Shown here: positions 18,474-25,500 of the stretch, one piece after another
Layout: each line of letters opens with the position of its first letter
Position numbering within the stretch: position 1 is the stretch's first letter
From: Escherichia coli
GTDB lineage: Bacteria > Pseudomonadota > Gammaproteobacteria > Enterobacterales > Enterobacteriaceae
Assembly (NCBI RefSeq): GCF_013122565.1
Contig: NZ_CP053258.1
Length of the DNA stretch: 64,000 nucleotides
Reading direction: 5' to 3' (one strand)
Made by a program: the position numbers and the translations under genes
Notes under the pieces: generated by a model
The model's database searches: none
Told to the model about the DNA's origin: nothing
Seen by the model: the letters and a program-made list of their open reading frames with translations, nothing else

Positions 18474-20819
18474 ATGACATCAACTAATTTCAGCCAGATT
18501 GCAGCCTTCCTGTGGTCTGTCGCCGACCTGTTACGCGGCGATTTTAAACAATCACAATATGGACGAATTATTCTTCCTTTTACCCTTTTGCGTCGTCTGG
18601 AATGCGTACTCGAAACAACGAAAGACGCGGTCATTGCTGAGGCGCAAAAAGTAAAAGCCATGAAACTGCCGGAGGAAGCCCAGGAGAAAATGATCCTGCG
18701 GGCGACTAATGGCCTGACGTTCTTTAACGCCTCAGCGATGGACCTCAGCAAAATGGGGCAAAATGGCATACAGGACAACCTGGAAAACTACATCCAGTCG
18801 TTCTCTTCGGATGCCCGCGAAATTTTCGAACACTTCAAGTTCAGCGAGTTTGTCGGACAGCTGGCGGATGCGAACTTGCTGTTCAAAGTGGTGCAAATAT
18901 TCGCTAAAGCAGATTTATACCCGGAGCATGTCACCAACCACGATATGGGGCTGGTGTTTGAGGAGCTGATCCGCCGTTTTGCCGAGAGTTCTAACGAAAC
19001 CGCCGGGGAGCACTTTACCCCGCGTGATATCGTCAATCTGACCACCTCGCTGGTGTTTTTCGATGATGATGACGCGCTCAATAAAGACGGCATCATCCGC
19101 ACCATTTACGACCCAACAGCGGGAACCGGCGGCTTTCTCTCCTCCGGCATGGAGTTCGTCCACAAACAAAACCCCAATGCCGTGATGCGCGCGTTTGGTC
19201 AGGAGTTAAACCCGGAATCCTACGCCATCTGTAAAGCCGACATGCTGATTAAGGGCCAGGACGTCAGCCTTATCAAACTCGGCAACACCCTGTCCAACGA
19301 TCAGCTCCCCGCAGAAAAATTCGATTACATGCTTTCTAATCCACCTTTCGGCGTGGACTGGAAAAAGATAGAAACCGACATCAACAACGAGCACAAACTC
19401 AAAGGTGCCGATGGTCGCTTTGGCCCCGGCCTGCCCCGCGTCTCTGACGGTTCGTTGCTGTTTCTGCTGCACCTGATCAGCAAAATGCGCGATGCCAAAA
19501 GCGGTGGCGGGCGGATCGGCATCATTCTTAATGGTTCGCCGTTATTCACCGGCGGTGCAGGAAGCGGTGAAAGCGAGATCCGCCGCTACATTCTGGAAGC
19601 GGATTTGCTGGAAGGCATTATCGCCCTGCCCACCGACATGTTTTACAACACCGGTATCGCTACCTATGTTTGGGTGCTGTCCAACAAAAAAGCGCCAGAA
19701 CGCAAAGGTAAAGTCCAGCTTATCGACGCCAGCAACCTGTGCGGCAAAATGCGTAAGTCGCTGGGATCAAAACGTAATATTCTCGGGGAGGAGGATATTG
19801 GTTTAATCACCCGCACGTTTGGCGATTTCGAACCCGTTGCCACCACCACGCTCGCGGCGTTAGGCCTGGAGAAAGCACCTGAACAAAAATCCAGCCGGGG
19901 ACGCCAGCCGACCACAACCAAAGCTGAGGCGGCAAAAACCTTTGCCAGCAAAGTCTTTTACAGCACCGAATTTGGCTATCGACGCATCACCGTTGAGCGC
20001 CCGTTGCGCCTGTCGTCTCAGATCACCGATGACGCTATTGCCACATTGCGCTTTGCGCCGAAGCCGTTTAACGCGCCGATGGCACAACTGTATGACGCCT
20101 TTGCTTTCCAGTGGCAGGACGGTAATTACGGCGACTTAACAGCGGTAGAAAGTGAAGCACGCGCCATTCTTAAAGCCGATTTTAGCGAGCTGAAAGAGAA
20201 GCAAATTAAAGATCTGCTCGACAGCAAATTATGGCTGGCCCAGCGCGGGTTAATGGAAAAAGCGCGGCGTATACAGGCGGCGATGGGGATGCTGGCGGGT
20301 GGCAAAGAGACCGTTAGCAATGACTTTAATCAGTTCCAGTTGACGCTGAAAGAGGCGTTCAAAACCGCAGGCGTGAAGCTGGATGCGAAAGAGAACAAGC
20401 AGTTTATCGATGCTATCACCCGCAAAAACCCGGACGCCGAGCCGGTAGTCAGCAAGGTACTGAAAGAAGCGGCACAACCGCTGTATGGCGCGTTTGAGTA
20501 CCACGGAAAGGTTGTGGAGTTTGAGCCGGATGGCGACCTGCGCGATAACGTGAATGTGCCGCTGAACCCGACGGTATCTACCAGCGAGTTGATCGAGGGT
20601 TACTTCAAAGCGGAAGTATTGCCGCACGTCGCGGATGCGTGGATTAACGCCGATAAGCGCGATGCGAAAGATGGGGATATCGGGATTGTGGGGTATGAAA
20701 TTCCGTTTAACCGCCATTTTTATGTTTATCAGCCGCCGAGGCCGCTGGAGGAGATTGATGCGGATCTGGATGCGGTAAGCGCTGAGATTATGAAACTGTT
20801 GCAGGAGGTACATTCCTGA
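18474..20819 (+). CDS. hsdM: Type I restriction-modification N6-adenine DNA methyltransferase subunit (long form, about 780 aa)
   Basis: SAM motif [10 protein letters not shown] and catalytic NPPFG (nt 19338-19352); about 280-aa C-terminal extension beyond a typical HsdM; stop overlaps hsdS start; alternative ATG at 18465. Confidence 0.85.
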
Positions 20820-22240
20820 TGGCAGGGTTAAATAAATATCAGGCGTATCCGGAGTATAGGGATTCTGGGGTGGAGTGGTTGGGGGAGATACCCTCACACT
20901 GGAGCGTTAGCAAGCCCCGTTATATGTTTAATTTCGGCAAAGGGCTTACAATTACCAAAGAGAATCTCCAGGACGACGGGATACCTTGCATTAACTACGG
21001 TGAAATCCATTCAAAATATGGTTTTGAAGTATCCCCCAAAATTCACCCATTGAAATGCGTTGATGAGAAGTATATAAAAGATAATTCAGGCTCATTACTT
21101 TTAAAAGGAGACATTATTTTTGCAGACACATCTGAAGATATTGATGGTTCCGGTAATTTCTCACAACTAATCAGCGATAATATTTCATTCGCTGGTTATC
21201 ATACAATTATTGCCAAACCACTTAATAGAAGAAATTGGCGATTTTATGCTTATCTTCTTGATTGCAAAGAGTTGCGAACCCAAGTTAGACATGCAGTTAA
21301 GGGAGTAAAGGTATTTAGCATTACACAAGCTATTTTACGCGGCCTTTCTATTTGGCTCCCTACGGATGATGAACAGAGTAAAATAGCTGATTTCCTCGAC
21401 CACGAAACTGTAAAAATCGACAACCTAATCAAGAAACAACAACAACTCATTGAACTACTGAAAGAAAAACGTCAGGCAGTGATTAGCCATGCGGTGACCA
21501 AAGGGCTAAATCCTGATGTGCCGATGAAAGATTCTGGGGTTGCGTGGTTGGGGAAAATACCAAAACATTGGGAAATGAGTAAACTACGCTACATGTTTCG
21601 CTTCGGAAAAGGTCTAACAATTACAAAAGAACATCTGCACGATGAGGGGGTTCCATGTGTTAACTATGGCGAAATACATTCTAAATTTGGTTTCGAAATC
21701 GACCCTCAAATTCACAAATTAAAATGTGTTGATGAATCGTACATTCTAAATAACCCCGACTCATTGATCTATAAAGGAGATATTATATTTGCAGATACAT
21801 CTGAAGACATTGACGGCGCTGGTAATTTTACACAATTGATTAGCGATAACCAAATATTTGCCGGTTATCACACTATTATATTACGCCCTCTTAATAGAGA
21901 GTCCTTAAGGTTTTATGCATATATATTTGATAGCAAAGCACTACGGGCACAAATTAGTAATGCAGTGAAAGGCGTGAAAGTATTTAGTATTACTCAAGCC
22001 ATTCTTCGAAGTACATCGATATGGTTTCCACCATTATCAGAACGAGAACGTATTGTTGCATTTCTCGATAACCAAACAATAAAAATCGATACCCTAATTG
22101 AGAAACAACTCCACCAAATAGCTCTCCTAAAAGAACGCCGCACCGCCCTTATCTCCGCTGCCGTCACCGGAAAAATCGACCTACGCAACTGGACCGCCCC
22201 CATCCCCGAAGCGGAAACACCCACGGAGGCCAGCGCATGA
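20819..22240 (+). CDS. hsdS: Type I R-M specificity subunit with two near-identical target-recognition halves
   Basis: 473 aa; aa 16-228 and aa 239-452 are clearly homologous; each half ends in a conserved coiled-coil-like region (LIKKQQQLIELLKEKRQA / LIEKQLHQIALLKERRTA). Confidence 0.85.
   Translation: MAGLNKYQAYPEYRDSGVEWLGEIPSHWSVSKPRYMFNFGKGLTITKENLQDDGIPCINYGEIHSKYGFEVSPKIHPLKCVDEKYIKDNSGSLLLKGDIIFADTSEDIDGSGNFSQLISDNISFAGYHTIIAKPLNRRNWRFYAYLLDCKELRTQVRHAVKGVKVFSITQAILRGLSIWLPTDDEQSKIADFLDHETVKIDNLIKKQQQLIELLKEKRQAVISHAVTKGLNPDVPMKDSGVAWLGKIPKHWEMSKLRYMFRFGKGLTITKEHLHDEGVPCVNYGEIHSKFGFEIDPQIHKLKCVDESYILNNPDSLIYKGDIIFADTSEDIDGAGNFTQLISDNQIFAGYHTIILRPLNRESLRFYAYIFDSKALRAQISNAVKGVKVFSITQAILRSTSIWFPPLSERERIVAFLDNQTIKIDTLIEKQLHQIALLKERRTALISAAVTGKIDLRNWTAPIPEAETPTEASA
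20864..22175 (+). repeat. Internal tandem duplication (about 670-bp unit, 2 copies) within hsdS
   Basis: Direct comparison of the two halves of the translated ORF and underlying DNA (e.g. ggggtggagtggttggggga vs ggggttgcgtggttggggaa). Confidence 0.7.
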
Positions 22241-25200: not shown

Positions 25201-25500
25201 TCTCGGATGAATGAATTATTCATTAGCGACCATTTGACCGACAAAGATATGATCAGCAATGCTTTTGCGGTGTATAACAAAATAACTGAAAATGAAAATG
25301 TTATGACACAAATTAAAAACAATCCCCCAGAACAAGCGATTCTTGGTGATTTCCTCCAGGCAGTTGATAATGCTGTAATGGACAGTAATGACGCTCGGCA
25401 AGAATTTATGTTGCAATATTTATCCGATCCAGCTCGGGCAAAGGGCTTTGCTTATCTGATGTTTGATATGCTAACGGGGAAAATTGCTTTACCAACATAA
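22237..25500 (+). CDS. hsdR: Type I restriction enzyme R subunit (endonuclease/helicase)
   Basis: 1087 aa; N-terminal PD-(D/E)xK-like DLVLFINGLPVATLELK; SF2 motifs GSGKS and IADEAHSS (nt 23596-23610); ATGA overlap with hsdS stop. Confidence 0.88.
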   Translation: MNHDITKEVNLQNDIIAQMVEKGWIVGKGDGYDRERALYAQDTLNFVKTTQPQEWEKFARVYPNDTERHFLDALVAQLKKADSNATDIQSRTWGTLGVLRHGLKIRNARFSLCQFKPEHNLNPETLARYQQNICRIVPELVYSPYASNSVFAETGVKAKKWRIDLVLFINGLPVATLELKSEFKQAVQNAIAQYKKTRLPKDPATNKPEPLLTFKRGALVHFAVSQYDVFMTTKLAGDSTFFLPFNKGTKDGGAGNEIPEDTRRYATDYLWNEVLLPDNLLKILASFVHLQIEEKEDWNGLKAKKESLIFPRYHQWDVVNKLLEAATIEGTGHKYLIQHSAGSGKSNSIAWTAHQLSRLYDVNGEKLFHSVIVVTDRTVLDDQLQDTIWQFEHADGVVGRINNREGDGSKSEKLASALENSQPIIIVTIQTFPFVLKAIENSISLKQRKYAVIADEAHSSQSGSTARQLKEVLMSEEMDDDVVLSSEDILDATIAARKGSSNLNYYAFTATPKSKTLELFGRCPRPDEPASKTNKPEAFHVYSMRQAIEEGFILDVLKNYTNYKVAYQLLQKLEDENREVDSKRAKVKLNQWVTLHDHNISQKVKVIVEHFRKHVMHLLGGQAKAMVVTSSRKAAVRYKLAFDKYISENNYQKISAMVAFSGEVEFREGDHNSLALLNQKFTEINMNPGLKGRDMRKAFDSDDYQVMLVANKFQTGFDQPKLCAMYVDKPLGGVECVQTLSRLNRTYPGKAESGTFVLDFYNDPDEILGAFQPYFQTAELTDVSDPQQVFDLFEKLRATQIFQWHEVEQFCEAYFIKNKSNAAISNICKPAVERWKKRYLMAIDAYLTAKEMFERTKKTGDTVLITNAENSFKACKQEKDRLEIFKKDLGSFVRFYEFMSQIVEYDDKDLEKLSLFARHLRPLLHEQRLEEDEIDLSNVEMSHYRLSKIHEQDLRLQEETPDYTLDASNNIGTAKAKDKKEEFLSQVLSRMNELFISDHLTDKDMISNAFAVYNKITENENVMTQIKNNPPEQAILGDFLQAVDNAVMDSNDARQEFMLQYLSDPARAKGFAYLMFDMLTGKIALPT

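Follow-up and report, generated by a model that had tools for sequence, protein, structure and literature searches.

Type I restriction-modification (R-M) systems consist of HsdM, a gamma-class N6-adenine DNA methyltransferase, HsdS, which carries two target recognition domains (TRDs) with conserved helices between them, and HsdR, which unites a PD-(D/E)xK nuclease and a superfamily 2 (SF2) ATPase. The M2S1 complex methylates hemimethylated bipartite targets at N6-adenine, and on unmethylated targets the R2M2S1 complex carries out ATP-driven DNA translocation and cleaves at a distance. The systems are sorted into lettered families (EcoKI, for example, belongs to Type IA) by about 80–90% identity or more in HsdM and HsdR and by in vivo complementation. 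In EcoKI hsdR comes first and is followed by hsdM-hsdS, whereas the order hsdM-hsdS-hsdR (M-S-R) is that of Type IC (EcoR124I) and Type ID (StySBLI). Type IB is described as having an HsdM of about 490 aa, a long HsdS and the order R, M-S (PMC3510504 and general knowledge). The classical immigration control region (ICR) is known as a hot spot for systems of Types I and IV (PMC3874165, PMC12707154), for which a 2025 EcoSal review gives only Types IA, IB, and ID among the Type I systems, in addition to GmrSD and brnAT (PMC12707154). Here we describe an M-S-R operon found in a stretch of 64,000 nucleotides of Escherichia coli (assembly GCF_013122565.1, contig NZ_CP053258.1), hereafter the window, with an HsdM that extends far beyond the catalytic core. 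Most likely this is an ordinary Type I operon, in which HsdM residues 456–781 would elaborate the normal tail of the protein.

An intact hsdM-hsdS-hsdR operon

The three genes make up a Type I R-M operon that is intact and has been annotated correctly (Table 1). In the list of open reading frames (ORFs) of the window they are co-oriented on the plus strand, and reading of the junctions gave a 1-nt stop/start overlap between hsdM and hsdS (TGATG) and a 4-nt overlap between hsdS and hsdR (ATGA), which together imply one transcript and translational coupling. The hsdM ORF spans 18465..20819 (784 aa), and its second ATG, at 18474, gives a protein of 781 aa. AAGGA is found 8 nt upstream of this ATG, and the 781-aa start is also the one used by RefSeq in the closest E. 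coli genome.

By Pfam, PADLOC and motif analysis the proteins have what is general to Type I systems, i.e., an HsdM with NPPF, an HsdS with two TRDs, and an HsdR with nuclease and ATPase, and the scores of the family assignments leave chance far behind. In HsdM the Pfam families HsdM_N (aa 9–143, 1.3e-26) and N6_Mtase (aa 155–455, 2.8e-58) follow each other, and both the SAM-binding (S-adenosylmethionine-binding) motif DPTAGTGG at 213 and NPPF at 289 are intact. HsdS matched PADLOC Specificity_I at 4.8e-128. HsdR matched PHROG 3830 at 8.8e-111 and contains HSDR_N (132–237), SWI2_SNF2 (314–580, with ResIII) and a T1R_D3-like region (623–757), while its C-terminal part of about 290 aa matches no Pfam family; its motifs are intact (D164...E178-L-K180, GSGKS at 342, DEAH at 455, and QTLSRLNR at 738). 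ORFs, domains and junctions all agree with the original prediction, made from the sequence of the window, of a Type I operon in M-S-R order with overlapping stop and start codons. The same prediction had called this order unlike that of EcoKI, and hsdR followed by hsdM-hsdS was indeed observed at a Type IA locus (L002). The system would be expected to act like any other Type I enzyme, with methylation by M2S1 and translocation and cutting by R2M2S1.

The C-terminal module of HsdM and its family

HsdM of EcoKI has 529 aa and the HsdM of another system found in the ICR has 539 aa, compared to 781 aa in the window. The Pfam core is followed by 326 residues, and about 240–250 residues lie beyond the length of a canonical HsdM of 529–539 aa; the initial estimate of roughly 280 residues beyond the core was correct and, if anything, too low. 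The protein had also been called unusually long, and this does not hold for its own family. The 120 best HsdM protein clusters share at least 81% identity with HsdM of the window and have lengths of 775–797 aa, save for three truncated proteins (759–767 aa) and one M-S fusion of 1021 aa. They span Citrobacter, Salmonella salamae, Serratia, Yersinia, Klebsiella, Enterobacter, Xenorhabdus, Edwardsiella, Pantoea, Pseudomonas, and Vibrio. Two family models match the protein end to end, i.e., PADLOC MTase_I PDLC03029 (1.5e-279, aa 2–780) and PHROG 34860 (2.3e-184, aa 4–779). The order M-S-R, with overlapping codons, was present in every relative examined, including one from Klebsiella pneumoniae (1-nt and 4-nt overlaps, hsdM of 2361 bp) and a metagenomic one with an HsdM of 654 aa. 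Lengths of 775–797 aa and the order M-S-R are thus standard in this very widespread HsdM family. The possibility that the length is standard in a common, well-characterised family had been raised together with the original prediction; the family is common and the length standard, and no paper describing the module was found that would mark it as well-characterised.

Module-bearing HsdM relatives of 640–809 aa occur both at other places in E. coli and in a range of phyla. Those of E. coli with an HsdM of 640, 675, or 809 aa occupy other loci in the order M-S-(x)-R, some with one extra gene between hsdS and hsdR. In relatives within the wider HsdM superfamily an extra gene often lies between hsdS and hsdR (L009:10007-10924, L011:11603-12766, and L007:10766-12409). 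These embedded genes encode DUF5655, DUF4268, or SLFN/AlbA_2 with HATPase_c_4 and recall TgvAB in the Type I operon of Vibrio cholerae VPI-2; the operon in the window has none.

The extra part of HsdM noted at the outset is real: Pfam, structure prediction with AlphaFold2 (AF2), alignment and profile search concur in a folded and conserved module that lacks annotation. HsdM of the window carries the motifs of the module family (FGYxxIxxERPL, DLRDxExVPL, DAWI, and GYEIxFNRxFYxYxPPR) as well as the terminal helix. A domain search, which had been proposed at the outset for aa 500–784, returned no Pfam family for aa 456–781, and for the extension Pfam, NCBIfam, PADLOC and PHROGs gave models of whole-protein families only and not a single named domain. 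AF2 modelled the full-length HsdM with a predicted local distance difference test score (pLDDT) of 86 and a predicted template modelling score (pTM) of 0.77, and aa 485–781 alone with a pLDDT of 89.6. The order of elements is a disordered linker (466–484), a beta hairpin, seven helices, a small beta/alpha unit, a strand (736–741) and a helix (758–780).

Conservation is uneven along the extension. Alignment A1, built from 24 full-length proteins with 40–85% identity, has F500, R509, P510, D691, W723, G740, Y741, E742, I743, F745, and R756 as the invariant residues of the extension. The first three lie in the motif of the hairpin (aa 500–511), D691 and W723 belong to DLRDxxNVPL and DAWI, respectively, of the beta/alpha sub-domain (aa 651–735), and the last six are in the tail. 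In close relatives aa 485–517 and aa 651–735 roughly equal the catalytic core in conservation, while the helical sub-domain between them (aa 518–650) is variable, and only about half of it is retained in the relatives of 644–684 aa, which keep both ends of the module. The tail (aa 736–781) is the best-conserved region of the entire protein, with 89–100% identity in close and 35–63% in distant relatives. The linker (aa 456–484, net charge +3) is confined to the subfamily of about 780–790 aa and is missing in the relatives of 644–758 aa in A1; aa 651–735 and the tail have net charges of -8 and -5, respectively. The KSSRGRQ of the linker loosely recalls an AT-hook, with the canonical RGRP core missing.

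The module is widespread. A search with aa 456–781 against 1.84 billion cluster representatives gave at least 2329 clusters at E<=1e-3, of which 956 were at E<=1e-10; these are clusters at 50% identity and many are fragments. The full-length matches have 644–799 aa, a few exceeding 1100 aa, and are HsdM-like proteins in which the module was seen at the C-terminus only. Among the matches, the shorter of which look like metagenomic fragments, the module was not recognised in a free-standing or otherwise fused form. Structural matches in AFDB50 numbered 239 at E<=0.001 and came from many phyla; among the 50 listed all but one were annotated as DNA methyltransferases, and those of full length had 605–1155 aa. 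With the full HsdM model Foldseek aligned only the first ~465 residues to the solved HsdMs (PacII 7vs4, 3lkd, and EcoR124I 7bst), and a search of solved structures with the HsdM sequence likewise matched nothing past the core. A profile of aa 485–781 run against all PDB chains gave designed helical proteins at best (E 0.089), and literature searches on C-terminal extensions of HsdM returned nothing relevant to the module. A large C-terminal module of HsdM is thus widespread while being without a domain definition or a solved homologue.

One relative, P0123 (L014:6001-9447, 1148 aa), is an HsdM with the same module followed by about 420 more residues. In these residues Pfam matches nothing with confidence and gives a weak HEPN hint (E 0.047), and a protein of 1155 aa from Acinetobacter lwoffii in AFDB looks similar to P0123. 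An M-S fusion was considered for P0123 and rejected, given the lack of similarity to HsdS of the window and of a confident Pfam match in the extra region.

Proposed role of the module

Aa 456–781 probably represent an elaboration of the normal C-terminal tail of HsdM and not a foreign domain tacked onto it. In the canonical pattern, as seen in the ICR HsdM of 539 aa, a 'GF-x-V' strand leads directly into 'dY-x-L-x-P-G-R-Y-V' and a terminal helix; the stretch is contiguous (AGFCKVATLQDIKDNDYVLTPGRYVG) and the helix follows. In HsdM of the window this pattern would be split between aa 500–511 on one side and aa 739–750 with helix 758–780 on the other, with about 225 residues inserted, the inserted part being the variable helical sub-domain plus the conserved beta/alpha sub-domain. 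There are two reasons for this proposal. First, the contiguous canonical motif is visible at the C-terminus of the 539-aa HsdM. Second, in the relatives of 644–684 aa the two ends of the module are retained, but only about half of what lies between them in the helical part.

In the M2S1 structures 5YBB and 7BST the tail of HsdM packs on the conserved helices of HsdS. Such packing of the C-terminal helical tail is described for solved M2S1 (PMC3510504). We propose that helix 758–780 would still dock HsdM on the conserved helices of HsdS, a role which the extreme conservation of the tail fits. The inserted module is likewise proposed to be a structural platform specific to the family and to bring no enzymatic activity of its own; most likely it offers the co-evolving HsdR and/or flanking DNA a further surface for contact.

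Several observations weigh against this picture of an ordinary operon with an elaborated tail. The scores with NCBIfam were below the curated cut-offs for both hsdM (90.7 against 242.75 bits) and hsdR (180.3 against 284.55 bits), which places the family outside the curated equivalogs of NCBI. No solved HsdM aligned past about aa 465 with a good root-mean-square deviation. When the profile of the extension was compared to the tail of the 539-aa ICR HsdM with hhalign, the match was not significant (E 0.55), so that the insertion into the tail is read from the motifs only. The literature searched yielded no experiment or methylome on this HsdM family. Finally, the automatic consensus scan did not list the possible operon promoter TTGATT-N18-TATAAC, as its -10 hexamer ends in C.

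It is unlikely, yet tempting to consider, that the module of about 300 residues is functionally distinct, e.g., as an element for HsdR docking or for control of the system, in which case the lineage would be a fourth allelic family of Type I in the ICR, so far without a letter. If true, this would be a Type I lineage assembled or regulated unlike EcoKI and EcoR124I. It is also improbable that the module is an autonomous functional domain with an activity of its own, such as a sensor or regulator of restriction (for instance in restriction alleviation or anti-anti-restriction) or a second DNA-binding element, and that the system is a mechanistically distinct Type I variant. The large and confidently predicted fold with its invariant R509, D691, W723, E742, and R756 would be in line with such a domain, as would the lack of any Pfam family or structural homologue, the basic disordered linker with SRGRQ ahead of the module, and the ~420 aa beyond the module in P0123. 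On the other hand, all full-length matches have the module at the C-terminus of an HsdM-like protein; its helical middle shows little conservation and can in part be dispensed with, and neither a catalytic-looking motif nor a known fold was found in it. The net acidic charge of aa 651–735 and of the tail argues against DNA binding by these parts. An elaborated HsdM tail is preferred.

Specificity, genomic setting and relation to described systems

The two halves of HsdS (aa 14–227 and 237–450, both TRDs included) are 69% identical by self-alignment, compared to 20–33% for the halves of seven other HsdS proteins. Because of this identity a nearly palindromic bipartite site is predicted, and HsdS of the window should recognise such a site; the similarity also suggests a recent internal duplication or conversion of a TRD. 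HsdS of the window has its conserved regions in common with another E. coli allele but differs from it in the TRDs, and among 5426 complete E. coli genomes the TRDs of the window were not found, only the central conserved region giving matches. With a palindromic target, as predicted, this natural example would lend itself to the study of symmetric recognition by a Type I system.

The exact HsdM sequence is that of E. coli WP_171459875.1. At about 96% identity the operon is present in 116 of the 5426 complete E. coli genomes (~2%), in every case on the chromosome, and in the best-matching genome it lies between yjiA and yjiS/yjiR, i.e., in the ICR. Its neighbours there are brnTA, a Fic-like gene of 244 aa, a GmrSD gene of 699 aa on the opposite strand, and a downstream hypothetical gene of 237 aa. 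The GmrSD/Fic block travels with the operon, being fully covered in 113 genomes. About 830 other E. coli genomes have a different GmrSD allele, with 73% DNA identity, in their ICR; in the avian pathogenic E. coli (APEC) strain E18055, the one genome examined, this allele is disrupted and adjoins a Type IA system. The 237-aa ORF downstream of hsdR is without a family, having only weak Pfam matches to transmembrane regions, and goes with the cassette in E. coli PapRG-06-5. It was considered as a conserved accessory gene and rejected, since a distant relative has an unrelated ORF of 239 aa at this position. The possible end of the operon, a hairpin ahead of the 237-aa ORF, is not listed by the terminator scan because of a loop longer than 8 nt and a weak T run.

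Table 1. Coordinates of the operon, the parts of HsdM and the surrounding features; positions refer to the window unless another locus is named.
Feature	Position	Strand	Description
brnA/brnT, Fic-like protein, GmrSD	14581-18189	-	Upstream of operon; 244-aa Fic-like protein, 699-aa GmrSD Type IV restriction enzyme
Possible sigma-70 promoter	18387..18416	+	TTGATT-N18-TATAAC, ~58 nt 5' of hsdM start; sequence reading
hsdM	18474..20819	+	781 aa, N6-adenine DNA methyltransferase subunit; ORF, Pfam, PADLOC
Canonical HsdM part	18498..19838	+	HsdM_N and catalytic N6_Mtase; Pfam, motifs, Foldseek
Linker	19839..19925 (aa 456-484)	+	Disordered, mildly basic, with KSSRGRQ; pLDDT <50 for aa 466-484
Conserved C-terminal module	19926..20678 (aa 485-735)	+	Beta hairpin, helical sub-domain, beta/alpha sub-domain
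C-terminal tail	20679..20816 (aa 736-781)	+	Strand, then 23-residue amphipathic helix
hsdS	20819..22240	+	473 aa, specificity subunit; PADLOC Specificity_I, self-alignment
hsdR	22237..25500	+	1087 aa, PD-(D/E)xK nuclease and superfamily 2 (SF2) ATP-dependent translocase; Pfam, motifs
Possible operon-end hairpin	25514..25539	+	GC-rich, 8 bp, GCCGGGGT...ACCCCGGC, 10-nt loop, 14 nt past hsdR stop; sequence reading
237-aa ORF	25566-26279	+	After the hairpin, directly 3' of hsdR; predicted multi-pass membrane protein
Probable Type ID system, E. coli H105	L012:14795-22296		HsdM 539, HsdS 434, HsdR 1087 aa

The location in the ICR and the order M-S-R are also those of Type ID, and it was considered that the system is simply Type ID (StySBLI, EcoR9I, KpnAI) and already characterised, because the EcoSal review gives only Types IA, IB, and ID for this region (PMC12707154). 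This is very improbable. A different M-S-R system, with an HsdM of 539 aa and an HsdR of 1087 aa, is present in the ICR of 952 of the 5426 genomes, a frequency that fits the figure given for Type ID in the review, and in its representative from E. coli H105 (L012) HsdM is 28% (core only) and HsdR 24% identical to the proteins of the window, HsdS having no similarity. In addition, no high-copy cluster of the Salmonella Enteritidis type was found among the 120 closest HsdMs. It is the existence of this separate system, with 24–28% identity, that led to rejection of Type ID. From gene order, locus and frequency L012 is the probable Type ID system; it shares with the window the locus by brnTA, the order M-S-R and, by chance, the length of HsdR, while its HsdM is without the C-terminal module and has a contiguous canonical tail. 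The family of the window is considered distinct from Type ID as judged against this probable member, and not against a named StySBLI, EcoR9I, or KpnAI sequence. The ICR of E. coli can hold two unrelated M-S-R Type I families, one with an HsdM of 539 aa (952/5426) and one with an HsdM of 781 aa (116/5426). Least credible of all is that the long hsdM ORF is an artefact, be it a sequencing or assembly fusion of two genes or a decaying pseudogene, for which nothing speaks save the length relative to EcoKI and which is refuted by the recurrence of an unbroken ORF of this length in many genera and hundreds of independent genomes, with conservation and confident folding over the entire length.

Types IA, IB, and IC fit no better. 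The HsdM is 28% identical over 260 aa to the Type IA HsdM of L002, where the gene order also differs, and it matches the M subunit of EcoKI in PDB at E 4e-11 only. The described sizes and order of Type IB are incompatible with an HsdM of 781 aa in the order M-S-R. For Type IC a phmmer search against EcoR124I in PDB gave 93.7 bits for HsdM (E 7e-26), confined to the core (aa 151–457), and 44 bits for HsdR (E 4e-11) over 65 residues, a short segment of the motor. About 2% of complete E. coli genomes have in their ICR an M-S-R Type I family distinct from the probable Type ID, a minor allele of the region that is absent from the table of the recent review.

Four described systems or families may be compared with the operon. 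EcoR124I (7BST, 2W00) has the overall enzyme architecture in common with it and the HsdM cores align, with 21–23% identity to solved HsdMs including EcoR124I by Foldseek; it differs in being plasmid-borne, in having an HsdM of 520 aa without the module, and in low sequence similarity. KpnBI, the Type IE system of K. pneumoniae GM236 described by Chin and colleagues in 2004, reportedly has an hsdM of 2631 bp, an hsdS of 1344 bp that overlaps hsdM by one base, and a single promoter 5' of hsdM. The K. pneumoniae members of the family of the window also have a one-base overlap. If the length of 2631 bp is right, HsdM of KpnBI would have 876 aa, i.e., 90 aa more, which probably puts it in a different family of long HsdMs. 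Several PADLOC models of such HsdMs (810–932 positions) match HsdM of the window over aa 6–455 only, and no member of the HsdM cluster bears the name KpnBI.

The operon VC1769-VC1765 of V. cholerae pathogenicity island VPI-2 has the order M-S-(two embedded genes)-R and has been found experimentally to methylate and restrict (PMC11411939). Methyltransferase fragments of V. cholerae in AFDB, which may or may not be those of VC1769, match the module structurally (30% identity, E ~4e-19). The operon in the window differs in being without embedded genes, its GmrSD lying upstream on the other strand. The closest likeness is to the family of PDLC03029 and PHROG 34860, with end-to-end homology, the module, the order M-S-R, overlaps of 1 and 4 nt, and an HsdR of about 1005–1087 aa. 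Its HsdMs have 780–790 aa in K. pneumoniae, Serratia, Yersinia, and Citrobacter, and 640 and 675 aa in E. coli, and the E. coli relative of 809 aa has the same C-terminal motifs as HsdM of the window. The shorter members (644–684 aa, A1) differ in the absence of the linker (aa 456–484) and of about half of the helical sub-domain. What sets the operon in the window apart within this family is an HsdS of its own, with two near-identical TRDs.

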